DNA of 64,000 bases, taken from contig CP070758.1 of the NCBI GenBank assembly GCA_020348925.1, positions 3,549,688-3,613,687 of the forward strand, read 5' to 3'. The DNA is from Gemmatimonadota bacterium. GTDB lineage: Bacteria; JBHIER01; G020348925. A program made the translations under genes and the position numbers. The stretch's first letter is position 1. Every line of letters starts with the position of its first letter. The notes under the pieces were generated by a model. That model had not been told where the DNA came from. It ran no database searches and saw only the letters and a list, made by a program, of their open reading frames with translations. Shown piece after piece: positions 844 through 29,890 of the stretch.

Positions 844-1992
844 CTACATGTATTTCCCTAAGATTTTCGCTACATTGAGATCGAACTCTCCGATGATCTG
901 AGTCTCTTTTCGACTCCTGTTGGGATCATTTTCATTGATCCATTGGTAGAATCGCATATGACCCATGAGTGTCGCTTCTTGCGCAATGGGCAGAAAGAGC
1001 TTCTGCAGCTCGTTCTGGGTTATAATTTTTATTTTTCCACTCTTGACAGGCAAAAAGAAATCATTTTCCTCGATGACGATACGCCCGGTGAGCTGAGCAT
1101 CCTTTTTCTCTTGACCCTCTTCGAAGTAGTTTCTGAAACGATCGACCTTGTTGTATTCCAGCGTCATCGGATCGACGATATTTGCTGCGTAATCTTCAAC
1201 GCCCGCAGAATCCGGATTGAGGAAGGTCACAGGCTCCTCGCCACTGCCAACAAACTGCTTTTCATCAGGGTACCAGATACCTCCGGTATTTGTAATATTT
1301 CCAACAATTAAGATCGTATCGGGTGCAGAGGCGACAAGGGTGTACTTTTTCGTTTCAGTAATGATGGAATCGAGGGGGAAACTGAGAAAAAATTTGTTCG
1401 TTGCGGGGTGGAGCCAGGCGTCAAAACCAGAAATGCTCGAATATTCCTGATACCATTCACCTTTGAGCTGGTCAATTGTGACAGGTACGTAGGTATCCAT
1501 ATTCCGTTGGTGAGTGGCCAGACCTGCATAGCCGACACCTACAATCAAGGCCAACAGGACTGGGATAATGTATTCCCATAGCCACAAGCCTTTATCTCTC
1601 TTTTTCTTATCACCAATCAGCACGGTTGTTGCGGCTGCCACTTTACCGTAATCGGTTTCTTCGACCTCCTCGTGAAATTCCAGCGGAAACGCAAGGGCTC
1701 GGACAATGCCGTAGCCGGCGATTTTTTTGCCAACTCCGGCGTCAGTAATGAGCGTATCCAGTGCGGAATTCTCCGCATCATTTTCAGTATCCAAAGAGAA
1801 TGTGGCTTTGAGTTGAGCGTCGTCGAGTTTATATGTGATGCCCAAGCCATCAAGGTACTCCTTGGCGGCGTCTTCGCACCCTGCGACATCCAGTGTGAGT
1901 TTGTGGTTTGTCTTGTCAGTCTTGCGCTCAATCAGGGTGGGTACTTTCCGGTCATTTACATCCATTTTGACCCTCCCGACTTTGTTGGTCAC
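844..1992 (-). CDS. Hypothetical membrane-anchored protein
   Basis: 382-aa ORF with one TM segment (YIIPVLLALIVGVGYAGL); no family recognised. Confidence 0.7.
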   Translation of the reverse strand: MTNKVGRVKMDVNDRKVPTLIERKTDKTNHKLTLDVAGCEDAAKEYLDGLGITYKLDDAQLKATFSLDTENDAENSALDTLITDAGVGKKIAGYGIVRALAFPLEFHEEVEETDYGKVAAATTVLIGDKKKRDKGLWLWEYIIPVLLALIVGVGYAGLATHQRNMDTYVPVTIDQLKGEWYQEYSSISGFDAWLHPATNKFFLSFPLDSIITETKKYTLVASAPDTILIVGNITNTGGIWYPDEKQFVGSGEEPVTFLNPDSAGVEDYAANIVDPMTLEYNKVDRFRNYFEEGQEKKDAQLTGRIVIEENDFFLPVKSGKIKIITQNELQKLFLPIAQEATLMGHMRFYQWINENDPNRSRKETQIIGEFDLNVAKILGKYM

Positions 1993-2277
1993 GTGGAATA
2001 GTTACACTTTCATACATTCGAATATAGCGCTTTTTCGCGGTCTTCAAAATACTTAAATTTAAGTGAACTGTCAAGTTAAATTTCGCTCCAGGAACTGTTT
2101 TTAGCGATCTTTCCGGAGTCCGAGATCCCTGGGGATTTTACACCTGCTGTCAATTTCTCGGGATACATGCAAGGCGTCCAGGAAATAGTGCTGAAACTTG
2201 AAACAGAGGATAGAATGAATGAAGTATTATGTTTGTATTCAATAGTGTAAGTCATTATATTTCATAAGGAAAAGTAA

Positions 2278-3102
2278 TTGCTGGTGCTTTTCATCGTATT
2301 CGGGAGGATAAGAGCCTTGCGCTATACAGAGCGTGTGAAATTTCACCACATGATATCCATTTCAGTACTCATTTCCTTTGTGGGATGTTCCGGAAGGGGG
2401 GATTTTCAGAGCGGAATTCTCACATCCTTGACATTACCTGAGAACTCGCGCCAGATCCTTTTCGTGACCGTATCCTCCTGGAATGATGTTCAAGGAACAC
2501 TGCGGCTCTTTGGCAGAACTGAATCCGGCTGGAAGGCAGAATGCGATGACATACCTGTCGTTCTCGGAAGAAACGGTCTTGGTTGGGGGAGAGGTCTTCA
2601 TGCTCTTAATCTGGCCGGCCCCCAGAAAATGGAGGGAGACGGAAGAGCACCGGCGGGTGTGTTCGACCTGGGAACATCCTTCGGCTATGATCTGCAAAGG
2701 CCGGATGGAAGCTCCTACCCTTACCGGCAGGCAGCCGAACACGACTATTTCATCGACGATGTCGACTCACCCACCTATAATCAATGGCAATCCCTGGACG
2801 ATTCAGCGGATACAGATCCGTATTACTACTGGACGTCCTTCGAGAGAATGAGGCGCGATGATGACCTCTACGAACTGGGGATTGTGGTGAAGCACAATAT
2901 GGATCCGGTTGAAAAGGGAAGGGGGAGTGCCATTTTTTTCCACGTCTGGCGAGGCCCGGATCAACCGACAGCGGGTTGCACCGCCATGTCGAAGGAGCAT
3001 CTCCTGACACTGCTCCGTTGGCTTGATCCGTCAAAGTATCCCCTTCTTGTGCAGGTTCCTGAAAACGTGCTGAAAAAAGGTCTCCTCAGGATTGATCATT
3101 GA
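2278..3102 (+). CDS. L,D-transpeptidase (YkuD family), probable lipoprotein; true start may be the ATG at 2350
   Basis: K.EGDGRAPAG motif, GSAIFFHVW and PTAGC catalytic His/Cys, lipobox-like FVGC. Confidence 0.85.
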   Translation: MLVLFIVFGRIRALRYTERVKFHHMISISVLISFVGCSGRGDFQSGILTSLTLPENSRQILFVTVSSWNDVQGTLRLFGRTESGWKAECDDIPVVLGRNGLGWGRGLHALNLAGPQKMEGDGRAPAGVFDLGTSFGYDLQRPDGSSYPYRQAAEHDYFIDDVDSPTYNQWQSLDDSADTDPYYYWTSFERMRRDDDLYELGIVVKHNMDPVEKGRGSAIFFHVWRGPDQPTAGCTAMSKEHLLTLLRWLDPSKYPLLVQVPENVLKKGLLRIDH

Positions 3103-3715
3103 GTGTTTCATCGAAGAATTCCCCGTGATTCTGCTTCGTGGGTTGGCCATAATTATTATGAAAAAGTTCTTTCTTTCGACCAGTGAAACTATGGGGCGAT
3201 TTCGAAAATAAGCGAAAGTTGAGTTGAAAGCCCTAAATCATTGTAATGTTGTGAAAGCAACCCATTTGACTGACATTCGGATTGATTTTACGATTAATCC
3301 AGGATGGACTTTCTTATTGCTCTTTCTATCCTTCAACAACTCTCGGAGGCAACCTCTTTTGCCCCACAGGACCACAGGAATGATCGCCGAGTTACAGCGA
3401 TTCCAATGGTTTTGGACGATCCGCACCATAAAAATGCCTGTCCAAACTGCAACGTTACAAACGATTATAATGACCGCTCGGCAAGCCAACAGTTGCTCCA
3501 AAAATCGATGGGATTAAGTTTGGTGGGATTGCAGGAATAAATGTCGTTTATGCATCGTGAAACGTGAAGGAGAGGCTCAGTTATAACCTCACGTTCAAAA
3601 AGTTGTTTGCAAGATATGAGTGACAAAAAGCTCTGAGATCTTTCCCCTACATCCACGACCAGGAGAATTTTGCAAAAAAAACGAATCCCATCAAGTCGCC
3701 AGTTGCATATTTATA

Positions 3716-3743
3716 TTGACATTTCATGTATTTCTGATATATT
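3716..3743 (+). promoter_or_regulatory. sigma70-type promoter of the RiPP cluster
   Basis: TTGACA-N16-TATATT with extended -10 TG. Confidence 0.65.
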
Positions 3744-3905
3744 GATAAAAAGTTACATTCGGAAATCCAGGCCAACCAGAGGAGACCCATCCGATACAGT
3801 TTAAATTCCCCTGGTTGGAAATCGGAATTATTAAATTCTTCTGCAACAATGTATTTGTATTCTGGGATCTGTTATTTGGAATTTCACGGAAAGGAGGTGA
3901 TAACC

Positions 3906-4106
3906 ATGAGTGAAGTGATGGATTGGGGTGAGTGTAGTATTGATAGTATCTATGCTTCTAAGTGCGACTCAAACGCTTGCAAGAGTGGCTGCCGCTGCGC
4001 CTGTAGTTGCCCGCCAGGTGTGAATTCTGCAAGAAACAGTGATGCTACTAGTGCCAGCAATACCGTCTCTGTTTATGCAACTTATAAAGAAACCGAAACG
4101 CACTAG
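3906..4106 (+). CDS. Cys-rich RiPP precursor peptide (66 aa), resembling CLI_3235-type precursors
   Basis: SD AAGGAGGTGA at 3891-3900. Sequence MSEVMDWGECSIDSIYASKCDSNACKSGCRCACSCPPGVNSARNSDATSASNTVSVYATYKETETH, directly upstream of a radical SAM/SPASM gene. Confidence 0.85.
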   Translation: MSEVMDWGECSIDSIYASKCDSNACKSGCRCACSCPPGVNSARNSDATSASNTVSVYATYKETETH

Positions 4107-4220
4107 AGAACCCGAGGCACTCATCTTTGAAGTTCTCAGGAACCCGGAAGAATATGAGCGGTACAAGAGGAGTATAGCGGCTAGAATTTCTTGCACTCAC
4201 CCGTTGTTTCAGGTTGCACT

Positions 4221-4252
4221 CGTGAGTCGTCTCAGTTCTGAGGCGGCTCACG
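4221..4252 (+). promoter_or_regulatory. Strong stem-loop between precursor and maturase genes (mRNA stabiliser or partial terminator)
   Basis: CGTGAGTCGTCTCAG-TT-CTGAGGCGGCTCACG; fully paired when G-U is allowed. Confidence 0.6.
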
Positions 4253-4353
4253 CGCCCCTTTTCGGAAAGGGTAAAGAGGAGGAACAAATAACTATTTGCT
4301 CTTTTGTCATCGCCCATTGATTAGTGGGAAGGTTAAGAAGGGGGGAATATATA

Positions 4354-5838
4354 ATGAAACAGAGTCCTTTTGTTCATAAATTCAAGACCGCAAAAAATCA
4401 TTATATTTATGATGTCAATACGAATAACATAATAAAAACCAGTCAAATAATTAACGACATAATAGACGACTATGGTACGCTCTCCCCTTCGGCGATTATT
4501 CGCAAATGGACGAAGAAATACGAGGCAAAATCGATCAGAGAATCTTTAAATTACATTCAGAATTCTTATAAATCTCAGGGCATATTTTCTTCTGATCGGC
4601 CAATCACGATGGAATACCCGATGTGTGAAAAACATTTTTGCGAGTCTTTGCAAAGTAAGTTAAGCGATCTTATATTGAACGTTACGGAGAGATGTAATTT
4701 GAGATGTAAATATTGTACCTATTCGGGAAGTTACTATTACTCGAGAAAACATTCGATGAGAAATATGTCCTGGGAGGTTGCAAAAAAAGCGATAGACTAT
4801 TTCCACTCGCATAGTCAGGCTTCAGAGAAGGTGTATGTATCTTTTTATGGAGGAGAACCTTTGCTCAATTTCGATCTTATTAAAAGAAGCGTAGAATATA
4901 TTAAAAAATCCACCAAATGGCCTCCCATTATCTTTCACATTACTACCAACGGAACATCACATAATGAAGAAGTAATGAAATTTCTAATAGATAACGATGT
5001 ATTACTCCAAGTGAGCATCGATGGACCATCAGAGGTGCATGATAGATATAGAGTTTTCAAAAATGGTAGGAGGTCTTTTAACGCAGTTAGTAAAAATCTG
5101 CAAAAACTGAAAGAAATGGACAAAGACTACTTCAAAGACAGAGTTTCTTTTACGGTCACACTTTCTCCACCATATAAATTATTAGAAGTCTATCGGTTTT
5201 TCTCTACTAATGAGTTGGTTGCCCTAAATACCCTGAGTGTCAATTTTGTAAACTCCTTCGATACAAATTTCTTCAATATTTTTTCGGATCAGGAAAACAA
5301 ATCTCAACTGAAGGCGCATCTTAAGATTTTAAGAGAACGGTATGTTGATTTGAGGGCTAATTCCACCACGACATCTTTCAATGAATTTTTAGGCGAGCTT
5401 TTTGAACGATCTCTAATAACAATTCACCGGAGGGACCGGAAGCCGATGGGAAAAAGTTGTGGACCTAATGGTATCTGTGTTCCTGGAACAAGAAGGTTGT
5501 TTGTGAATGTTGAGGGTAAACTCTACCCATGTGAAAGGGAGGGAGAAACGTTTTGCATTGGCAATGTGGGAACCGGTGTAGAACGTCGGAAAGTATGGTC
5601 TCTGATTAAAAGATATATCGATGAAAGTACTGTAGACTGCACAAACTGCTGGGCTGTCAGACTCTGTTCATTATGTTTAGCTGAAGCAACGAAAAACCAC
5701 CATTTTGATTATGCAAGGAAGAGAGAAAACTGCCCTCATGAAAGTTTGAAGTTTCAAAGAGGTTTAATTCTCTATGCAGAGATCATGGAACGGAATCCGA
5801 AAGCCTTTGATTTTGTAAAAGATATGACTATCGAGTAG
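4354..5838 (+). CDS. Radical SAM/SPASM peptide maturase, CcpM-like (Cys-rich peptide system)
   Basis: N-terminus PFVHKFKT..HYIYDVNTN, CNLRCKYC, FYGGEPLL, SIDGP..HD.YR, SPASM Cys cluster (GICVPG..LFVNVEGKLYPCE...CTNCWAVRLCSLC...C). Confidence 0.9.
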   Translation: MKQSPFVHKFKTAKNHYIYDVNTNNIIKTSQIINDIIDDYGTLSPSAIIRKWTKKYEAKSIRESLNYIQNSYKSQGIFSSDRPITMEYPMCEKHFCESLQSKLSDLILNVTERCNLRCKYCTYSGSYYYSRKHSMRNMSWEVAKKAIDYFHSHSQASEKVYVSFYGGEPLLNFDLIKRSVEYIKKSTKWPPIIFHITTNGTSHNEEVMKFLIDNDVLLQVSIDGPSEVHDRYRVFKNGRRSFNAVSKNLQKLKEMDKDYFKDRVSFTVTLSPPYKLLEVYRFFSTNELVALNTLSVNFVNSFDTNFFNIFSDQENKSQLKAHLKILRERYVDLRANSTTTSFNEFLGELFERSLITIHRRDRKPMGKSCGPNGICVPGTRRLFVNVEGKLYPCEREGETFCIGNVGTGVERRKVWSLIKRYIDESTVDCTNCWAVRLCSLCLAEATKNHHFDYARKRENCPHESLKFQRGLILYAEIMERNPKAFDFVKDMTIE

Positions 5839-5920
5839 GAGTTGGGAGAATTTTTTAGAAAAAAGTGTTTTACCCCCTTGTAATTCCCCAATAAATTCAT
5901 AAATATAGACAGAGAATTTT

Positions 5921-7792
5921 ATGGTTGATTTGTCCGATCTTTTCAAGATACCAATACAACAGACAAACGCCAAGTTCTCGCTTCTATTCCGTGCACTCGC
6001 CTTTACCTGGCAAACGGGTAAGTTTTTCACTATCCTGATATTAATAGTCAACATTATATCCGCCCTTTTTCCTGCGGCAAATTTATTTATTGTAAAAAAT
6101 GTGATTGACAGTATCGTCAATCTTCTGAATACTCAAAGGAGTGGTGGCTTAAAGGATTTATCCCTATGGATCGCATTATTGATTGGCATATGGGTTATTC
6201 AACATATCATCAGTACCTTACAGACAAGTGCATCATCGTGGTTGGATCTTCGCGTCAAACAAAATGCTCAAATTTCCATTATGCGCAAATGTTCAGAATT
6301 TGATATCGCTTTTTTTGAAAATCCAACTAATTTGAATATGGTGCAAAATGCATATGTGGGTGCCACGGGCGATATATTTTATGTCATGATCCTTTTCTTC
6401 AGTGTCATTGAAACGATTGTTACTCTTATAAGTTTCATCGCCATACTTTTTGGATTACACTGGGTGAGTGTTATGATAATCATTGCAACGACTCTACCAC
6501 AAATTTTTTCCAATAGATATTTTGCCAAAAGAAGATGGGAAATTACTACGGGTCTCGTGGAACCTCGTCGTATGAGTAGTTATTATTCAAGTGTAGTAAC
6601 TCGGAGAGGAGTCGCCAAGGAGATTCGACTGTTTGGTCTCTTTAAACACTTTCTCGATCGGTTCATATCTTTCACGGGTCAATTTAGACAGATTGAAAAG
6701 ACCTTTCTTAAAAAACAGGCAGTGATAAACTTCCTGGTTAACCTTATTACTATTGCCGGTTCTTCACTTATCTGGCTTTATATCTTACACCGGGCGATTG
6801 GTGGAACAATCAGCATTGGTGATATTGTGTTTTATACTGGAGCAGTATCAAGCTTTCAAGGTGGTTTATCCACGGTGTTTTCTTATGCAGGACAGGTTTT
6901 TCAGCATGTGCTTTTTCTGGGAAACTTCTTTTCGTTCTTAGACCTTGACCCTTTCAAGGTCGAGGGCGCACTTAAAGGTCCAGCAAATGTGATTGGAAAT
7001 CGGAGTGGTCATGTGAAACCACCTGTAATACTCAGAAAGGGTATTGAGTTTAAAAATGTCTCATTCAAATATCCGCAGACCGATAAATTGGTATTGAACA
7101 ATATAAGCCTTTTTTTACCTCCTAAGGAATCAGTCGCTTTAGTCGGAGAAAATGGGGCTGGAAAAACTACCTTGATAAAACTTTTAGTTCGCCTCTATGA
7201 TCCTACTGAGGGTCAGATACTTATTGATGATAGAGATATAAGAGACTACGATTTGGAAAGTCTTCATCGAATATTCGCAGAGATTTTTCAAGATTATATC
7301 TGCTATCCTTTGACCGTGCGTGAAAATATTGGATATGGGAATATCGAAAGAATTGATGATATATCGTCCATACAAAGAGCTTCGCAACTTGCTGGAGTGC
7401 ATGAATTTATTGAACGCTTCCCAGATAAATATGAGACCTATCTCGGACGTCTCTTTCAAAAATCGAACATCGACCTCTCGGTTGGTCAATGGCAAAAAAT
7501 AGGTCTGGCTCGTGCATTAATGCGAGAAGATGCACCCGTGTTGATTTTGGACGAACCGACTGCAGCTTTGGATGTGTATGCCGAGTATGAAATGTATAGG
7601 CAATTTAGCGCAATGATGGCAAATCGTTTAACAATAATTATTTCCCATCGATTCTCTACTGTTCGTGCTGCCCATCACATTTTGGTTCTTCATGAAGGAT
7701 GTTTAGTAGAACAAGGTAGTCATGAGAAGTTGATGAATCAGGATACATTATACAAAGAAATGTACACTATTCAAGCCGATCGCTTTAAATAA
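5921..7792 (+). CDS. ABC exporter (permease + ATPase) without C39 peptidase domain
   Basis: Multiple TMs, GENGAGKTT, LSVGQWQK, LILDEPT, ISHR. Confidence 0.92.
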   Translation: MVDLSDLFKIPIQQTNAKFSLLFRALAFTWQTGKFFTILILIVNIISALFPAANLFIVKNVIDSIVNLLNTQRSGGLKDLSLWIALLIGIWVIQHIISTLQTSASSWLDLRVKQNAQISIMRKCSEFDIAFFENPTNLNMVQNAYVGATGDIFYVMILFFSVIETIVTLISFIAILFGLHWVSVMIIIATTLPQIFSNRYFAKRRWEITTGLVEPRRMSSYYSSVVTRRGVAKEIRLFGLFKHFLDRFISFTGQFRQIEKTFLKKQAVINFLVNLITIAGSSLIWLYILHRAIGGTISIGDIVFYTGAVSSFQGGLSTVFSYAGQVFQHVLFLGNFFSFLDLDPFKVEGALKGPANVIGNRSGHVKPPVILRKGIEFKNVSFKYPQTDKLVLNNISLFLPPKESVALVGENGAGKTTLIKLLVRLYDPTEGQILIDDRDIRDYDLESLHRIFAEIFQDYICYPLTVRENIGYGNIERIDDISSIQRASQLAGVHEFIERFPDKYETYLGRLFQKSNIDLSVGQWQKIGLARALMREDAPVLILDEPTAALDVYAEYEMYRQFSAMMANRLTIIISHRFSTVRAAHHILVLHEGCLVEQGSHEKLMNQDTLYKEMYTIQADRFK

Positions 7793-8301
7793 TAACGAAG
7801 ATATTTTCTCAAGAAAGGCTCTTCGGTCAAGATAAAGATCCACTCGCCGTTTTGGGTTCAGCTTCATAAAAGATATCGATTTGAATTTTTCTTATACTTC
7901 CATGCAATTCAGTTAATGTGAAATAAATAGAGTGCATTTCGGCTTATCATAGATTATGTTATGTTCAATTCAGTCATGCAGGGGGTTTCAAGGATTTTCA
8001 CCTGCGAGACAGAAATGAGCATACTTTGAGCACCTTTGAAGAGAGTTCTCTCATGAGGTAAAGGACTTGAAGACGACCATAAAATGCACGCAGTTCTTAA
8101 CCGAGAAGGCAAGAAAGCGAAGGGCAAGATCGCTATGAAGGTGGCCGGTGAATCCTCAATTGAGGACAGAGATGCAATCTGACAAGGCAATTTAACTCGG
8201 GCTACCATCGTCACTACACTCATCATGACGCGGGTTCAGGGCGACGTTCAATGCCTCCTGGGAATACGTTAACCTCTATTTCAAGCAAGGGAGCAGATGC
8301 C

Positions 8302-8835
8302 ATGGAAAGAATGGTCCAAACTTCGCCAAAGGTGGTTCTCTTGACCGTATGGATCGTATTCGCTGTATTTATCGTAACACTTCATTTGGGGTGCGCAAAC
8401 CGCTTCTCACGCGGTCATGATCATAAGAGACTCGTTCGGCTCTATTTCGAAGAGGGAATAAATCAGGGGAATGTGAATGTTGCGGATGAAATACTCGCAT
8501 CGAATTTCGTGAAATATAACAATGGCGCCAAGTCCGAGGAAGTCGGCCCGGATGTTCTCAAGCAAGCCATCACATCACATATCACCAACAATACTGAGTA
8601 CAAGTTTCACATCGAGGACCTCTTGGCTGAAGGAGACAAGGTGGCGGTACGTTGGCAATGGCGAAGTATAAACGTAAAATATGGTAAGCCCAAGGAGGTG
8701 ATAAGTCAGGGCATCTCGATTTTTTATTTTGAAGACGGGAAAATAGAGGAATTGTGGCAAGCGTTTGATGTCTGGAGCTTCAATAAGCAATTGGGATTTG
8801 AACATATACCGCCTGCATCCACGGAGGGCAACTAA
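8302..8835 (+). CDS. SnoaL-like/ester cyclase (NTF2 fold) protein, possible lipoprotein
   Basis: LVRLYFEEGINQGN.VADEILA, FHIEDLLAEGDKVAVRW, GKIEELW..FD; lipobox-like LGC. Confidence 0.8.
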   Translation: MERMVQTSPKVVLLTVWIVFAVFIVTLHLGCANRFSRGHDHKRLVRLYFEEGINQGNVNVADEILASNFVKYNNGAKSEEVGPDVLKQAITSHITNNTEYKFHIEDLLAEGDKVAVRWQWRSINVKYGKPKEVISQGISIFYFEDGKIEELWQAFDVWSFNKQLGFEHIPPASTEGN

Positions 8836-8968
8836 GATTGGACCACAGTGGGTATATGATATTCAATGAGAACGCGGTGCCGGTATCCCACTTATTGCAT
8901 TCGAGTGACGATTTAATATAGAAATGTGTCTATTCAGTCAAGCGATCCGAAATTTTGGAGGACACCCC

Positions 8969-10261
8969 ATGAATATAAACCGATTTAAACGTTTTTCTCT
9001 GGATCGACACGCTCTGTCGTGGGAGTACATCATCAGGCTACCATTGATTTTCTTTTTGATTGTCATTCTGCCGGTGTGCGTTTTTGGCACTGATCAGAAT
9101 TCAATTCTTGGGCCACCTCCTGGTAGTTATAGAATCCTGTCGGAGGACGGACAGGTGCAATTCCCCTTTGAGCTCTACCGCGAGGATATCCGTTTTGAGG
9201 GTGAAGTGAACGGTAAAAAAGTGCGCATGCTTCTGGATAACGGTATTCTCTGGGATCAGATCTTGTTCTTCGGAAGTCCGTATATTGATTCATTGGGCCT
9301 CACATATGACGGCGAAGTTGAAGTTGGTGGTGGTGGCGAAGGCAACCGTGTCAATTCCAATACGGCCTCCGGGGTGACCATCCGCTTTCCGGGTGTGGAA
9401 TTTACCGGCCAGACGGCCATCGTCACGCCGTTCAGCTCCGGTCTGAGCAATTTTTGGGAGGGTGCCGAGGGTCAGGTGAGTGGCACGTTCCTGAAGCATT
9501 TTGTGGTGGAACTCAATTTCGATACTATGATCGTAACCCTCACTGAACCCACGAAGTTCATATACACCGGGAAAGGCGCGGTGCTTCCAATGAAGTCTCT
9601 CCCCCAGGGTGCCTGGGCTATTCCTGCGAGGCTGGAATTGTCGGACGGTCGAACTCTTTCTCTGGATATCATGATGGATCTGGGTGACGGGAATCCGCTG
9701 TTTCTCGTGACGGATGAGGCCAACTCCATCGGGCTGCCTGACAAGACTATCCAAGCCAGCCTGGGTTTTGGCGTCCAGGGTGAGATGCACGGTCATTACG
9801 GCCGGGTCCGGAGCCTTGAAATTGGTGGGTACAAGGTGGATGATATAGTGGCGAGCTTTGTCTCCAGAGATTACGGCGGCATCGTTTTTCACGAGGCCAC
9901 TGTGGGGCTGCCGGTGCTGTCGCGTTTCAACTTCACGTATGATTATCCGTCACAGAGAATGTTTATCGAGCCGAATCACAGGTTTACAGATCCGTTTGAA
10001 CATGATATGACCGGTATGACGTTGAAACGGAATGAAGAGGGATATCTTGCCGTCTCCGCCCTGCACCCCGATTCTCCTGCCAGCGAAGCGGGGCTTCGGA
10101 TTGATGATGTTGTGACAAAAGTCAACGGTAGAACTACCGAACAATTGGATTACTGGGATCTGCGACCGATGTTTCGGCAGGAAGGTAAAATAGTCCTTCT
10201 GACGGTATCGCGTGATGGCGAAGAATTTGAACTGTCCGTTACGCTTCGGCGAGTTCTTTGA
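8969..10261 (+). CDS. Secreted two-lobe aspartyl protease (retropepsin-like) with C-terminal PDZ domain
   Basis: MLLDNG and IMMDLG Asp motifs, G..VLSRFN.TYDY, PDZ motif SPASEAGLRIDDVVTKVNG. Confidence 0.8.
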   Translation: MNINRFKRFSLDRHALSWEYIIRLPLIFFLIVILPVCVFGTDQNSILGPPPGSYRILSEDGQVQFPFELYREDIRFEGEVNGKKVRMLLDNGILWDQILFFGSPYIDSLGLTYDGEVEVGGGGEGNRVNSNTASGVTIRFPGVEFTGQTAIVTPFSSGLSNFWEGAEGQVSGTFLKHFVVELNFDTMIVTLTEPTKFIYTGKGAVLPMKSLPQGAWAIPARLELSDGRTLSLDIMMDLGDGNPLFLVTDEANSIGLPDKTIQASLGFGVQGEMHGHYGRVRSLEIGGYKVDDIVASFVSRDYGGIVFHEATVGLPVLSRFNFTYDYPSQRMFIEPNHRFTDPFEHDMTGMTLKRNEEGYLAVSALHPDSPASEAGLRIDDVVTKVNGRTTEQLDYWDLRPMFRQEGKIVLLTVSRDGEEFELSVTLRRVL

Positions 10262-10336
10262 ACTGCATTAGAAAAGCGATCATTTTCATTAAGGATTCCT
10301 CTGTCGCGTTGACACCACTGATTTCATGTTTAACAT

Positions 10337-12103
10337 ATGAACCCGGCACATCAGAATAATAAAAAAAAGAGAATTACGGTATCAAGTGTCGGCTATGTCT
10401 TGAAGGAGATTATCTGGCCGCGCAAGAAACTGGTGTTTGTGGGGATGATTCTCATCATCATCAACCGTCTTTCAGGGCTTGTACTGCCTGGCGCGGGAAA
10501 GTATCTCATCGACGAGGTCATTTCCAAATCGAACACGTCACTGTTGTATCCGCTGCTTTTTGCCGTCGGCGGTGCTGTGTTCGTTCAGTCCGTCTCCTCC
10601 TTTGCCCTCACCCGGTTGTTGAGCGTCGAGGCGCAGCACCTCATCTCCGTCTTACGGTCGAAGGTCCAGAAGCATATCATCTTTCTTCCCCTGCGATTTT
10701 TCGACAACACCAAAACAGGCGAACTGGTCTCGAGAATCATGACCGATGTGGAGGGCGTGCGCAACCTGGTGGGGACAGGACTGGTACAGCTTTTTGGCGG
10801 TATCCTGACATCAATCGTAGCCCTGTCCCTGCTGATTCGGATCAATCCGCTGATGACGCTGTATGTCTTGGTGCCGTTGATTGTTTTCGGTCTGGTGTCG
10901 CTCAAGGCCTTTGGTTTTATCCGCCCTATTTTTCGCGAGAGAGGAAAGATCAATGCCGAGGTTACAGGTCGTCTAACGGAATCGCTGAGCGGTATCCGCG
11001 TGATCAAAGGGTTCAATGCGGAGAATTATGAAATCGGTGTGTTTGCCAAGGGCGTCGAACGTCTGTATCTGAATGTGAAAAAATCGTTAACGGCAACGAG
11101 CCTCGTGACATCCTCGGCGACACTTTTGCTCGGGATCGCCAGCGTCGTCATCATGGGCCTGGGGACCACAATGATTTTAAACGGTAACATGACGATCGGT
11201 GATTTTTTCGCTTTTTCCCTGTACCTCGGCTTCTTGATTGCGCCCATAGTACAGATGAGCAATATCGGCAGTCAGATGACCGAGTCATTTGCCGGTCTCG
11301 ACCGCACCGAAGAGATAATGAACACGGTCATAGAAGGGGAGGAGCCGGAACGGATCCACACGTTTGACACGATCAAGGGTTGCGTTGTGTTTGAGGACGT
11401 GAGCTTTTCCTATGACAGGGACACACCTGTTGTGAAGGATATTTCCTTTTCAGCGCCCGCCGGTTCGGTCATTGCGCTTGTCGGTTCATCCGGCTCGGGG
11501 AAAACGACCATCGCCGGTCTGGCCGCCTCGTTTTTTATGCCGGACAGAGGCAAAATCACGGTGGACGGCATCGATCTCTCCACGGTCAGGCTGGAGAGCT
11601 ACCGTTCCCATCTGGGTGTTGTTCTGCAGGACGAATTTTTATACGAAGGCACCATTGCCGAGAATATTCTCTTTTCAAAACCCCAGGCGACAAAAGAGGA
11701 ATTACTGGCAGCCGTGGCTGCGGCACACGTCGATGAATTTACCGAGCGCTTTGAAAACGGCTTGGATACACTCATCGGTGAACGGGGCGTCAAATTGTCC
11801 GGCGGTCAAAGACAGCGGGTGGCTCTTGCCAGAGCCATACTTGCCGATCCGAGAATATTGATTCTCGATGAAGCGACGTCCAACCTGGATACAGAGAGCG
11901 AGCTCTTTATTCAGGAGAGCATGGCGAAACTGATGAAAGGCAGAACGACATTTGTCATCGCCCACAGGCTCAGCACGATCAGAGAGGCGGATCAGATTCT
12001 GGTCGTTGAGGACGGACGGATTGCCGAACAGGGAGACCATAAAGATCTGATTAAGTTAAAGGGTCGCTATTATCAATTGTACAAGTACCAGGCCAGGATA
12101 TAA
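10337..12103 (+). CDS. ABC transporter ATP-binding/permease (MdlB/MsbA-like)
   Basis: GSSGSGKTT, LSGGQRQR, ILDEATS, IAHRLST. Confidence 0.92.
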   Translation: MNPAHQNNKKKRITVSSVGYVLKEIIWPRKKLVFVGMILIIINRLSGLVLPGAGKYLIDEVISKSNTSLLYPLLFAVGGAVFVQSVSSFALTRLLSVEAQHLISVLRSKVQKHIIFLPLRFFDNTKTGELVSRIMTDVEGVRNLVGTGLVQLFGGILTSIVALSLLIRINPLMTLYVLVPLIVFGLVSLKAFGFIRPIFRERGKINAEVTGRLTESLSGIRVIKGFNAENYEIGVFAKGVERLYLNVKKSLTATSLVTSSATLLLGIASVVIMGLGTTMILNGNMTIGDFFAFSLYLGFLIAPIVQMSNIGSQMTESFAGLDRTEEIMNTVIEGEEPERIHTFDTIKGCVVFEDVSFSYDRDTPVVKDISFSAPAGSVIALVGSSGSGKTTIAGLAASFFMPDRGKITVDGIDLSTVRLESYRSHLGVVLQDEFLYEGTIAENILFSKPQATKEELLAAVAAAHVDEFTERFENGLDTLIGERGVKLSGGQRQRVALARAILADPRILILDEATSNLDTESELFIQESMAKLMKGRTTFVIAHRLSTIREADQILVVEDGRIAEQGDHKDLIKLKGRYYQLYKYQARI

Positions 12104-13635: not shown

Positions 13636-15162
13636 ATGCCAGTTCGTGTTGACGGAGATCATCTCACTATCGAAGATGTCGTTCGAGTGGCCCGGGAAAA
13701 CGAGGAAGTCCAGATCCCACAAGAAATCATAGATAAAATCCTCGAAAACAGAGCGATTGTTGAGAAAAAGATTGAAGAACAGGCTGTCATGTATGGGGTT
13801 ACAACTGGCATCGGGGAGCTTTCCGAAGTTGTGTTGACGCCCGAGCAGACCCGCGATTTTCAGAAATACCTCATTTACAGCCATGCTGCCGGTTGCGGCG
13901 AGCCGGTCCCCGTCGATGCAGCACGGGCGGCTATTCTGAGCAGGATCAATGTCCTCTCCAATGGAAGATCAGGTGTCCGGCCCCTCATTGTTCAAACGCT
14001 TGTGAACATGTTGAACCGGGGTGTCACCCCGGTCATGTGTCAGCGGGGATCGGTTGGGGCGTGCGGGGATCTTTCCCCCATGGCCCAGATGGCCCTTGTC
14101 CCCATGGGTGAGGGTGAGGCCTTTTATCAGGGTGAGCGCATGAACGGTAAGACGGCCATGGAGAAGGCGGGTATTCCCATCATTGAGTACGAGGCACGCG
14201 ACGGATTGGCCACCATCAACGGATCGAACGTCATCACCGGTATGGGGTCTCTTCAGCTCTACGATGCGGAGCGCTGGCTCAAGACCTCTGAAATTGCTGC
14301 AGCCATGACGCTCGATGCCCTCAACGCCAATATGCTGGCCTATGACGAGAGGATCCACAAGGCGCGAGGGTATCAGGGAGCCATCGAATGTGCCGAGAAT
14401 ATCAGACGGCTTGTCGAGGGCAGCGATTACCTGAAAGAGAAGGGAAAAAAAGTTCAGGATGCTTACAGCCTGAGAAGCACACCTCAGGTTGTCGGTGCGG
14501 CCAAGGACACGCTTCAATTTTCAAGGGGGATGTTTCTTACGGAACTGAACGGTGTGGGTGACAACCCGATTTTCTTTCCGGATGATGGGGGGACGGTCAT
14601 CACCGGTGCGAACTTTCAGGGGACGCCCCTGGCCTTCGGTCTGGAGTTTCTGGGGACGGCCGTGACTACTGTGGCTGCTCTGTCAGAGAGAAGAACCAAC
14701 AGGCTGCTCAATCCCAATCTCAGCATGGGGCTCCCTGCCTTTCTCACGAAGGGGGCAGGCATGTTCGCCGGACTCATGCTCACTCAGTACACAGCCGGAA
14801 TGCTCGTCTCCGAGAATCGAGTGCTCAGTCATCCTGCTGCCACCGGGTCGATCCCGGCGGCTGCTGACCAGGAAGATTTCGTCAGCATGGGTATGACAAC
14901 CGCCATCAAAACGAGACAGATCATCGATAACGCCAATGGGGTTCTTGCCATCGAACTGATGGCCGCGGCCCAGGCCCTTGATTTCAGGAAACCGTGGAAG
15001 CACGGTCCCGGTATTCAGGCAGCATATGATGCTGTTCGAAGACATGTCGATCATTTGGAGGAAGATCGACCCCTCTACGACGATATCAATCAACTTACCG
15101 CAGAGGTGAAATCCGGTCAAATTCTTAAGGAAGTGGAAAAGGCCATCGGACCTTTGAAGTGA
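13636..15162 (+). CDS. hutH: Histidine ammonia-lyase (MIO-dependent aromatic amino acid lyase family)
   Basis: YGVTTGIG, LIYSHAAG (His-type SH), GSVGACGDLSPM, QDAYSLRSTPQV, ANFQG, QEDFVSMG. Confidence 0.85.
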   Translation: MPVRVDGDHLTIEDVVRVARENEEVQIPQEIIDKILENRAIVEKKIEEQAVMYGVTTGIGELSEVVLTPEQTRDFQKYLIYSHAAGCGEPVPVDAARAAILSRINVLSNGRSGVRPLIVQTLVNMLNRGVTPVMCQRGSVGACGDLSPMAQMALVPMGEGEAFYQGERMNGKTAMEKAGIPIIEYEARDGLATINGSNVITGMGSLQLYDAERWLKTSEIAAAMTLDALNANMLAYDERIHKARGYQGAIECAENIRRLVEGSDYLKEKGKKVQDAYSLRSTPQVVGAAKDTLQFSRGMFLTELNGVGDNPIFFPDDGGTVITGANFQGTPLAFGLEFLGTAVTTVAALSERRTNRLLNPNLSMGLPAFLTKGAGMFAGLMLTQYTAGMLVSENRVLSHPAATGSIPAAADQEDFVSMGMTTAIKTRQIIDNANGVLAIELMAAAQALDFRKPWKHGPGIQAAYDAVRRHVDHLEEDRPLYDDINQLTAEVKSGQILKEVEKAIGPLK

Positions 15163-29257: not shown

Positions 29258-29333
29258 GCGCCCATAGCTCAATTGGTAGAGCAGCGGACTCTTAATCCGT
29301 TGGTTCGGGGTTCAAGTCCCTGTGGGCGTACCA
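29258..29333 (+). tRNA. tRNA-Lys (CTT)
   Basis: 76-nt cloverleaf, anticodon arm GCGGA-CTCTTAA-TCCGT, GTTCAAGTC T-loop, encoded CCA. Confidence 0.97.
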
Positions 29334-29340
29334 ATATTTT

Positions 29341-29694
29341 GGGGGCGACAGGTTTCGACGGGGATAGAGGGGGCAGGGATAGCAGGTCGAGCATTCCCAA
29401 TAACTCGTTAAACTGACGGGAACCAAATGTAAGTGCAAACGGTTATTCTTACGCACTGGCTGCTTAATGCAGCTCGTTCTCACCGGCCCTGCCTGTTGGG
29501 CTGGATGAGGGCGTCGTAAAAAACAGGCTGGCCTCTCCTTCACGCCGAGGGAGAAGAGGTGAGATTTTATCGGCTGGTGCCCTCCGGATCCCGCTTGTTG
29601 GAGCCGGATGGCATGAGACTCAAAAAGCAAGCTAAGCCTGTAGAGGTCCCTGTGACCGTATCTTCGGACGTGGGTTCGATTCCCACCGCCTCCA
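29341..29694 (+). ncRNA. ssrA: tmRNA; tag (A)NGYSYALAA*
   Basis: 5' GGGGGCGACAGGTTTCGACG, tag ORF 29435-29467, 3' GGTTCGATTCCCACCGCCTCCA; full CCA not encoded. Confidence 0.96.
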
Positions 29695-29890
29695 CTGCGT
29701 CCCTCGTAAGCCACCGTGAAACATCCTCACCGGCGGCTTTTTGATTTTAAAGATGGGCCACAGAGGCACTGGGATACAGAATATGTATAATGATAAATGC
29801 GGTGATATGTGGTAAACGCAAAGACAGTGTCACTGCCAGGGAGGCCGTGTTACAGGCGGCAGGTGAAAGCAGTTTTATTCCAGAACGCGG

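Follow-up and report, generated by a model that had tools for sequence, protein, structure and literature searches.

Within a 64 000-nt window of contig CP070758.1 from an uncultured Gemmatimonadota bacterium of sediment (the window being the whole stretch of DNA that was analysed) lies a compact island of three genes, all read from the forward strand. They encode a small cysteine-rich peptide, a radical S-adenosylmethionine (SAM) enzyme with a SPASM domain, and an ATP-binding cassette (ABC) exporter. We consider it likely that the island is a minimal operon for a thioether-crosslinked peptide of the kind made on ribosomes and modified after translation (RiPP), probably foreign to this genome, in which a 66-aa precursor is bound by the RiPP recognition element (RRE) of a SPASM maturase and the product is exported by the ABC protein. 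The components of the island are collected in Table 1.

Table 1. Components of the island in window coordinates (ORF, open reading frame; MFE, minimum free energy)
Feature	Position	Strand	Basis or remark
Sigma-70-like promoter candidate	3716-3743	+	TTGACA, 16 nt, TATATT with TG extension; 11 of 12 consensus matches
Shine-Dalgarno sequence AGGAGG	3892-3897	+	Read from sequence; 8 nt ahead of precursor ATG 3906
Precursor gene, 66 aa	3906-4106	+	ORF reading
14-bp stem-loop, then CGCCCCUUUU (U run 4259-4262)	4221-4252	+	MFE and centroid structures of 4100-4353
Radical SAM/SPASM maturase gene, 494 aa	4354-5838	+	Pfam; start set by alignment
ABC exporter gene, 623 aa	5921-7792	+	Pfam

The three genes and their putative expression signals

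The precursor has the sequence MSEVMDWGECSIDSIYASKCDSNACKSGCRCACSCPPGVNSARNSDATSASNTVSVYATYKETETH, within which several parts can be distinguished. Residues 1-9 (MSEVMDWGE) form the putative recognition motif, and residues 10-35 the cysteine region. The seven cysteines lie at positions 10, 20, 25, 29, 31, 33 and 35, the last four constituting a C-x-C-x-C-x-C run (29-35). The sequence P36-P37-G38 follows directly after the last cysteine, and the peptide ends in a polar tail. The 31 residues of the tail include no cysteine, and 14 of them are Ser, Thr, Asn or Asp. When the 5.04-Mb genome was scanned in all six frames, 13 C-x-C-x-C-x-C runs came to light, and the precursor is the only small ORF having such a run that adjoins a radical SAM gene. 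The peptide matches nothing in Pfam or NCBIfam, even at E 10. A word-indexed search of 5.8 billion proteins returned the precursor alone, and phmmer applied to 1.84 billion representative proteins returned the precursor together with two long cysteine-repeat proteins (1841 and 542 aa); the latter are taken as composition matches and not as relatives of the precursor.

The first-pass annotation of the window had described at this point a promoter, a strong Shine-Dalgarno (SD) sequence, a 66-aa precursor with seven cysteines, a PPG turn and a cysteine-free tail rich in Ser, Thr, Asn and Asp, and then a radical SAM/SPASM enzyme and an ABC exporter. All of these are present where they had been placed, the last two being borne out by Pfam matches and the enzyme also by invariant cysteines. 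The promoter requires some reserve. The candidate is the best of 17 promoter-like sites between 3200 and 8400, where shuffled sequence gives 13.1 ± 3.8, and such sites are thus no commoner than in the shuffles. The site is compatible with function as a promoter, and its position is suggestive. A transcript initiated from it would carry a 5′ leader of ∼155 nt. The region of ∼800 nt between the gene for a YkuD-domain protein and the precursor gene (3103-3905) is devoid of a convincing ORF or Rfam match, and an Rfam scan of 2000-9000 yielded a single chance-level match (STnc400, E 0.13, at 25.7 bits where the gathering score is 80).

The boundaries of the genes were examined with respect to other possible starts. 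An in-frame ATG at 3849 would extend the precursor to 85 aa; it lacks an SD sequence, and the start at 3906 fits the N-termini that related peptides have. GTG 4324 was rejected as the start of the maturase, as all 23 aligned homologues begin at ATG 4354. An overlapping ORF (4039-4320) was likewise rejected as a second peptide, having neither a cysteine motif nor an SD sequence.

The precursor and maturase genes are separated by a spacer of 247 nt that carries the stem-loop, and the maturase and exporter genes by 82 nt. The segment 4100-4353 as a whole has a folding z of -2.46. The stem-loop was not flagged in a terminator scan because its U run is of four nucleotides only. We regard it as a candidate attenuating terminator or stabilizer; placed behind the precursor gene, it may yield the usual excess of precursor transcript over that of the enzyme.

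The maturase and its place among peptide-modifying enzymes

The enzyme matches the Radical_SAM family of Pfam (73.4 bits) and also Fer4_12; its SPASM match is sub-threshold (17.8 compared with 21.5 bits). In an alignment of the maturase with 23 homologues the cluster motif C114-x3-C118-x2-C121 is invariant in all 24 sequences, as are seven C-terminal SPASM cysteines (375, 393, 429, 432, 438, 441 and 460), the number expected for two auxiliary clusters, and this SPASM-cysteine region aligns with that of CteB. The AlphaFold2 model of the maturase has a mean predicted local distance difference test (pLDDT) score of 85.1, and its N-terminus (residues ∼7-75) is of the RRE type, with strands at 7-11, 16-20 and 25-29 and helices at 31-39, 45-52 and 58-75 (pLDDT 84-97). 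Among solved structures CteB (5wgg) is the closest in the profile search (E 1.2e-60 over residues 5-467) and also the top match of the model in Foldseek (E 6.6e-22, TM score 0.61-0.73, identity 26%). Taken together, the cluster motif, the SPASM cysteines and the predicted RRE fold fit the type of a radical SAM/SPASM RiPP maturase with an RRE.

In relation to the families of NCBIfam the maturase reaches no curated cut-off. Its best family is CcpM (TIGR04068) at 367.3 bits, with an end-to-end alignment (E 1.2e-109; cut-off 500), followed by RumMC (NF035951) at 271.9 bits (cut-off 720; residues 19-503 aligned). Lower scores are obtained with the lachnocin maturase (229.0 bits, cut-off 550), GG_samocin (207.0, cut-off 300), PapB (188.8, cut-off 340), QhpD (173.7, cut-off 453) and the SCIFF maturase (162.4, cut-off 425). 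RumMC, PapB and the SCIFF maturase are formers of thioethers on cysteine-containing peptides by their NCBIfam descriptions; the first-pass annotation had likewise stated that related enzymes make such crosslinks. QhpD is also a thioether former. CcpM, lachnocin and GG_samocin are peptide maturases whose descriptions contain no chemistry. The same annotation had named, as an alternative grouping, the anaerobic sulfatase maturases that lack peptide partners. That family (TIGR03942) scores 112.4 bits (cut-off 349), compared with 367.3 bits for CcpM, and the enzyme has both an RRE and an adjacent cysteine-rich peptide, so that this grouping is not borne out.

These scores bear on whether the enzyme might carry out some different reaction altogether. 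Carbon-carbon or carbon-oxygen crosslinks on W7, Y16, Y57 and Y60, an epimerization, or a new transformation of cysteine could be envisaged, with the cysteines serving as metal or cluster ligands. The SPASM enzymes as a group have many functions, and similarity over the full length may mislead on function, according to PMC10288494; an alternating cysteine run could bind metals, and we found no characterized member of this clade in the literature that we could search. Against this, the families that do not form thioethers score far lower (YhhB 99.4, DynA 82.4, FxsB 73.8 and DarW 64.1 bits), the cyclophane formers reaching ∼99 bits at most. Moreover, in the class of precursors described below it is the cysteine run and one glycine that are retained throughout, and the aromatic residues are not conserved. 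We therefore consider another chemistry to be unlikely.

A word-indexed search with the maturase gave 8000 candidates that were scored. An E-value of 0.001 or below was reached by 4489, of which the best 120 were taken. Amongst these best 120 of 4489 there are 11 near-full-length homologues (P0003-P0013) of 58-71% identity, and the next full-length homologue has 48% identity. Using the maturase alignment we then fetched 79 genome and 80 metagenome loci, recovering the maturase ORF in 158 of the 159; the best identity to the maturase was 43% in the genome scan and 46% in the metagenome scan. NCBIfam was scanned at E 1e-75 with 88 of the 136 locus enzymes that have at least 400 aa. Eighteen lie above the CcpM cut-off (515-639 bits) and two above that of RumMC, while a further 14 have RumMC as best family at sub-threshold scores (353-543 bits). 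CcpM is the best family at a sub-threshold score, as in the window, for 33 (259-377 bits), and the remaining 21 have no family at this E-value.

A FastTree phylogeny of 111 rows was calculated from 86 of the 158 locus enzymes, 24 proteins from the word-indexed search and the window maturase. All 18 bona fide CcpM enzymes group together with support 99, and the 16 of RumMC type do so with support 100; the window maturase is outside both clades. It forms instead a 12-row clade with P0003-P0013 (support 100). This is nested in a clade of 27 rows (support 98) that includes enzymes from WOR-3 (L012), Krumholzibacteriia (L009) and the Patescibacteria group (L041). Of the named clades in the trees, that of RumMC is one of the closer ones. 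A quick IQ-TREE tree of 44 rows under a mixture model has the same three groups, with supports of 99, 100 and 100/95. In an approximately unbiased (AU) test, with groups that were chosen after the tree was seen, joining the five-row clade of the window to ten CcpM rows was rejected (difference in log likelihood 46.2, p 0.013). The phylogeny suggested by the first-pass annotation thus places the enzyme as sister to named clades of peptide maturases, outside the CcpM clade. Its own clade is unnamed and well supported, comes from uncultured bacteria other than Firmicutes, and is separate from CcpM and RumMC.

Precursor peptides beside related maturases and their predicted recognition

How general is such a precursor? 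In many of the 158 loci a related maturase is adjoined by small ORFs with C-x-C-x-C, among which several types can be recognized. Fourteen peptides that we term class A lie beside maturases of the window's part of the tree and of several neighbouring branches. They have in common with the window precursor an N-terminal sequence Met-x-Glu/Asp-Val/Ile-hydrophobic and then a glycine, the cysteine run, and a tail of 18-47 residues. Class A is defined by this architecture and by gene context, and not by demonstrated homology of the whole peptide. When the window precursor is aligned with a Zixibacteria-type subfamily and two other peptides, a common core C-x-C-G-C-x-C-x-C emerges, in which the window precursor has Ser27 in place of the second cysteine. 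The only residues common to the whole class are the cysteine run and one glycine. The Zixibacteria-type subfamily has 12 members (P0122-P0124, P0126-P0133 and the peptide of locus L010, identical to P0122), within which the tail is strongly conserved, and this speaks for a functional tail. Relatives of other class-A peptides turned up in the A2 profile search, and none of the window's own precursor.

The closest known system is that of CcpM with its partner peptides of the CLI_3235 family. The first-pass annotation had stated that CcpM-type enzymes pair with C-x-C-x-C-x-C precursors, mostly described in Firmicutes; in the loci that we fetched, bona fide CcpM enzymes do pair with C-x-C-x-C precursors, and most are from Firmicutes. 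The corresponding model (TIGR04065) matches none of the 15 class-A peptides, the window precursor included, as against ten of 11 control peptides beside bona fide CcpM enzymes, seven of them above the cut-off of 26 bits. The peptides beside bona fide CcpM start Met-Lys/Arg-Lys-Leu. The profile comparison that the annotation had proposed therefore has a divided outcome: CcpM is the best family for the enzyme, at 367.3 bits below a cut-off of 500, and the precursor model finds no match. The accessory protein of CcpM systems (TIGR04066) was not found in the window's genome; in controls the same search detected it in the two CcpM-bearing genomes (L042 and L056) and not in the two class-A genomes (L009 and L025) that were tested. 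The acyl-carrier-related partner TIGR04069 has no match in the window's genome, and none in the control genomes either.

The sole experimental study of a CcpM/CLI_3235 system found in the literature that we could search, the scope of which did not extend to subscription papers and supplements, is that of SacP23 from Paenibacillus polymyxa. According to PMC10731318, SacP23 is a CLI_3235 peptide whose cluster also encodes an ABC transporter, a subtilisin-like protease and members of TIGR04068, TIGR04066 and TIGR04069; it is active on Gram-positive bacteria, and thioethers are expected, with the linkages 'to be elucidated'. There are clear likenesses to the island. In both the best maturase family is CcpM, the precursor is ordered as leader, cysteine run and polar tail, an ABC exporter is part of the cluster, and the chemistry of the product is unsolved. 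There are differences as well. The window maturase is sub-cut-off and in a separate clade, the leader motif is different with no TIGR04065 match, TIGR04066 was not found in the genome, and the island contains no subtilisin-type protease. CcpM/CLI_3235 hosts are Clostridia and Paenibacillus, in contrast to the uncultured non-Firmicute lineages of the window's clade.

The locus could nonetheless be an ordinary bacteriocin system of the CcpM/CLI_3235 kind, as found in Clostridia and Paenibacillus. The full-length match of 367.3 bits to TIGR04068 and the layout of the precursor would both agree with this. Yet the score falls short of the cut-off, the clade that gathers all 18 passing enzymes (support 99) excludes the window, the AU test (p 0.013, groups named post hoc) speaks against joining them, and TIGR04065 and TIGR04066 separate class A from the controls. 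This makes membership very unlikely indeed. On the comparisons of sequence, the system is not a member of CcpM/CLI_3235, and is one of a distinct unnamed clade having its own precursor type. The literature searched contained nothing on this clade of maturases or on class-A peptides.

RumMC and its substrate RumC offer a second comparison. RumMC is also a radical SAM/SPASM enzyme with an RRE, and in RumC the cysteine donors link to downstream residues to generate hairpins (PMC6760926). The window maturase scores 271.9 bits in comparison to a cut-off of 720, and the RumMC clade with its sub-cut-off relatives is separate (support 100). Precursors in the RumMC clade lie downstream of the maturase, and that of the window upstream; RumC has four cysteines in two pairs, and the window precursor an alternating run. 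In our RumMC-like group the peptides are indeed downstream; Apre_1838 is found in loci L063 and L044, and CA_C0660 in L072 below its cut-off. Two further loci of this clade (L105 and L111) gave no clear match to a precursor family.

The manner in which the precursor would be recognized was addressed by prediction of the complex with the maturase, using alignments of 24 rows for the enzyme and 15 rows for the precursor, together with three controls. The interface score ipSAE is 0.61, 0.68 and 0.69 (median 0.68), and the best control gives 0.00. The mark set for this score is reached by 116 of 157 solved complexes and by 2 of 215 mismatched pairs. Agreement between runs extends to at least 29% of contacts, and the pLDDT of the partner is at least 35. 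On the precursor side the confident contacts involve residues 1-5 and 7-9, and on the enzyme side residues 17-18, 25-30 (the third strand of the RRE), 32-33 and 63-77; in the model the N-terminus of the precursor also contacts parts of the C-terminal domain of the maturase. The stretch in contact coincides with the only conserved non-cysteine motif of the class. A leader held on the third strand is the usual mode of an RRE. The search for an RRE advised by the first-pass annotation has thus been answered by an N-terminal RRE fold and by a model in which the N-terminal motif of the precursor docks upon it.

CteB resembles the window maturase in this respect, having the RRE, radical SAM barrel and SPASM domain and a leader on the third RRE strand, where it is placed in our model. 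It differs in sequence (26% identity), and the SCIFF model gives the window maturase 162.4 bits in comparison with a cut-off of 425. SCIFF precursors have six cysteines in a different pattern.

The fetched loci contain other precursor types. What looks to be a second unnamed type comprises peptides of 52-65 aa with a single C-x-C-x-C and ending in Asn-Gly, which start Met-Tyr/Phe-Arg/Thr-Lys/Glu-Leu, except for that of L049 which has a different start. Their genes are found just downstream of the maturase in L029 (5513-5710), L032 (3910-4086), L051 (5466-5642), L035 (5549-5719) and L067 (2631-2801). On the opposite strand from the maturase are those of L048 (3714-3887, minus strand), upstream of it, and L049 (6946-7104, minus strand), 1.5 kb away. 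This type pairs with a separate maturase clade, mostly from Krumholzibacteriia. Neither of the two peptides tested has a match in NCBIfam, and at E 1e-75 their maturases are without a family. In two deltaproteobacterial loci (L016:3688-3990 and L038:3323-3658) an ORF of 100-111 aa with a cysteine motif lies upstream of the maturase; by eye these start with an Arg-Arg-Gly-Phe-Leu/Phe-type stretch like a twin-arginine signal, which would suggest a Tat-exported radical SAM substrate. A Fibrobacteraceae locus (L020:2912-3852) has four tandem, divergent C-x-C-x-C precursor genes upstream of one maturase. One class-A locus (L094) adjoins a Mutator-family transposase.

Proposed crosslinking, export and origin

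The steps by which the peptide might be matured follow from established knowledge of SPASM thioether synthases. Precursor residues 1-9 would bind the RRE of the maturase as an added β-strand, whereupon a cysteine of the run would coordinate an auxiliary iron-sulfur cluster. Reductive cleavage of SAM would generate a 5′-deoxyadenosyl radical that would abstract hydrogen from the acceptor residue, and coupling of the resulting carbon radical with the cysteine sulfur would form an intramolecular thioether. The cycle would be repeated along the run. The most likely outcome would be a hairpin with nested links that join the C-x-C-x-C-x-C strand, rung by rung, to the polar tail, a topology that the first-pass annotation had already proposed, and this product would then be moved by the exporter across the inner membrane into the periplasm.

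A hairpin ladder is favoured because the layout of cysteine run, PPG and cysteine-free tail matches that of the hairpin sactipeptides StsA and RumC1. The corresponding papers describe StsA as a C-x-C-x-C strand laddered to G-x-G-x-G by three sactionines (PMC10288494), and RumC1 as a double hairpin in which there are four thioethers (PMC6760926). For the topology predicted here StsB/StsA and BlaB/BlaA are the best precedent, with a C-x-C-x-C donor strand laddered to alternate residues of the returning hairpin strand; on the same source (PMC10288494), StsB and BlaB are MftC-like enzymes whereas the window maturase is CcpM-like, and StsA has G-x-G-x-G acceptors where the tail of the window precursor has the single glycine G38. 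By analogy, sulfur to Cα (sactionine) links are slightly favoured over links to other carbons.

The position of attachment is the point on which the principal rival differs. In ranthipeptides donors and acceptors are interleaved at short range. The same operon might install ranthionine links, from sulfur to Cβ or Cγ of the Asp, Asn, Thr or Ser residues that make up 14 of the 31 in the tail. PapB, QhpD and the SCIFF maturase are strong matches (188.8, 173.7 and 162.4 bits), the nearest solved structure (CteB) is itself a SCIFF maturase, and the SPASM enzyme CrpC makes ranthionines in a substrate that is rich in cysteine (PMC13692751). Against this, RumMC, a sactipeptide maturase by its NCBIfam description, outscores at 271.9 bits any ranthipeptide maturase named there, its clade is among the closer named ones in the trees, and an N-terminal donor run with a cysteine-free acceptor tail is the layout of the sactipeptide hairpins (PMC10288494 and PMC6760926). 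On balance ranthionine links are a possibility of some substance, and are considerably less probable than the thioether-crosslinked operon considered as a whole.

The exporter is a fused permease and ATPase, with an ABC_tran match of 104.3 bits. Its best NCBIfam match is of the MsbA type (282.6 bits, below cut-off), and Pfam reveals no C39 peptidase domain in it. It has 26% identity over its full length to the ABC protein encoded directly behind the maturase of L009. Pfam analysis of 43 neighbouring ORFs in 15 class-A loci showed a peptidase-free ABC exporter directly behind the maturase in L009, L025 and L011, and after one ORF in L055; in the remaining 11 of the 15, several of which are cut by contig ends, the maturase has no visible ABC neighbour. 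Outer-membrane partners and protease genes, those of subtilisin type included, were not found in the island, and no dehydrogenase or other client gene adjoins it.

This gene content bears on the role of the peptide. It could be a periplasmic or signalling peptide of the producer itself, comparable to the exported, thioether-crosslinked small subunit of quinohemoprotein amine dehydrogenase (QHNDH) or to peptides of the SCIFF type. The QHNDH system uses an ABC exporter. The host is diderm, and a lone inner-membrane exporter in an island with neither an outer-membrane partner nor an immunity gene would deliver its cargo to the periplasm; the QhpD match of 173.7 bits points in the same direction. 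The lack of an adjoining dehydrogenase or client gene stands against it, as does the antibacterial activity of SacP23, the one studied member of the neighbouring family, and of RumC1 (PMC10731318 and PMC6760926). We regard such a role as doubtful, slightly more so than ranthionine links.

Taking the thioether-crosslinked hairpin as the product, a bolder proposal can be framed, which we offer as speculation and hold to be rather improbable. There might be a new RiPP subclass of uncultured diderm phyla, with an N-terminal tag of ∼9 residues and C-x-C-G-C-x-C-x-C zipped to the tail, moved by a plain ABC pump to the periplasm with no dedicated protease. The tag may stay on the product, C10, C20 and C25 could be free (for metal binding or redox chemistry) or form further links, and the role may be a different one from the killing of competitors.

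A number of observations weigh against the preferred reading of a foreign, thioether-forming operon. The thioether chemistry is a prediction, and in the searchable literature the product of the CcpM family is itself structurally unsolved. HMMER and word searches gave no relative of the whole precursor. The mean column identity of the class-A alignment is 22%, and relatedness there amounts to a short motif and a cysteine run. Within the class the window precursor is atypical, with Ser27 for cysteine, three extra isolated cysteines (10, 20 and 25), and its first cysteine at residue 10, compared with 16-29 in the other 24 peptides. The score of the complex may reflect the memory of the prediction program, a like complex (CteB with its leader, 5wgg) having already been solved, and may thus mirror likeness and not the affinity of this particular pair. 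The precursor's own pLDDT is 36, and the model is silent on the core and its topology, the rest of the peptide not being confidently placed. The ABC_membrane match of the exporter is weak (25.7 bits compared with a cut-off of 28), and its start codon lacks a clear SD sequence. A leader protease and an immunity gene are absent from the island, and promoter-like sites are not enriched, as noted above. With regard to a foreign origin, the precursor gene has 46.8% GC and is without the bias of the rest of the island. There is no transposase, integrase or tRNA at the island edges, the nearest tRNA being at 29258, and the flanking direct repeats are unconvincing (at best 17 nt with 88% identity).

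The evidence for that origin is one of composition and distribution. The genome is a single closed contig of 5 038 017 bases with 49.5% GC. The region 3849-7792 has 38.8% GC, and just 0.34% of genome windows of the same size are as low. The maturase and exporter genes have 37-39% GC; at third codon positions the GC fractions are 0.37 and 0.35, respectively, compared with 0.51-0.64 for five flanking genes. The description in the first-pass annotation of a cluster that is AT-rich throughout thus holds for the maturase and exporter genes and not for the precursor gene. The genome contains an LpxC match (303.6 bits) and 13 Omp85-family matches, and therefore the host is diderm, in accord with the Gram-negative type of host that had been proposed.

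The host phylum is represented by two genomes in a collection of 199 900 species, that of the window and one other (G001; 87% complete, 670 contigs). No close homologue of the maturase was found in the latter, the best match being E 8.1e-16 over residues 102-231, with none at E 1e-40. On the left flank it retains orf382 together with the gene for the YkuD-domain protein (60% identity for the YkuD-domain gene), with a different gene beyond, and it gave no good match to the aspartyl-protease/PDZ gene of the right flank. A clean empty site is therefore not demonstrable. Because of the composition and patchy distribution, the operon was probably acquired horizontally. This had been proposed from the start, and the foreign composition and the failure to find the island in the 87% complete G001 favour it, while neither a mobility gene, a tRNA nor a flanking repeat has come to light at the island. 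The other 39 genomes compared as relatives of the window's genome have only the domain in common with it.

Four sediment-metagenome runs were examined over 1500-10500. Where this is covered, there are no contig joints that skip the island. Contigs of run X1 cover 1500-4465, where they reach the maturase gene from the left flank, and 7743-10500, where they continue from the end of the exporter gene to the right flank; this run may be the source sample of the genome.

The first-pass interpretation is upheld in its essentials, with refinements on family membership, on the composition of the precursor gene and on the grounds for horizontal acquisition. For specialists the locus is a useful lead and not a surprise, being of a well-known kind. 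Genome mining drew attention years ago to alternating-cysteine peptides paired with radical SAM enzymes like CcpM, and in the searchable literature the action of the enzyme on peptides of the CcpM type has not yet been determined. The present locus is about the simplest version, with one precursor, one enzyme, one pump and a motif of ∼9 residues, and no accessory proteins. It is therefore convenient for heterologous reconstitution. The analysis also points to a large unnamed branch of the superfamily in sediment-dwelling candidate phyla, whose own precursor type escapes current family models and precursor annotation. Should the ladder hairpin be correct, the product would offer a peptide scaffold of small size and high stability.

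Some neighbouring genes deserve mention. To the right of the island, at host-like GC, there follow on the forward strand (8251-12103) genes for a SnoaL-like protein, an aspartyl-protease/PDZ protein and a second ABC exporter (ABC_membrane 146.9 bits). The aspartyl-protease/PDZ gene (8924-10261) has a host-like 51% GC, and no link to the RiPP cluster came to light for it or for its two neighbours. The cofactor-forming triad of the ammonia-lyases is Ala-Ser-Gly; a 508-aa ORF resembling the histidine/phenylalanine ammonia-lyases (13636-15162, forward strand) has Ala-Cys-Gly, as read from its translation. Lastly, the forward strand at 29258-29695 carries a tRNA-Lys (CTT) gene, followed after 8 nt by a gene for tmRNA with the tag peptide ANGYSYALAA.

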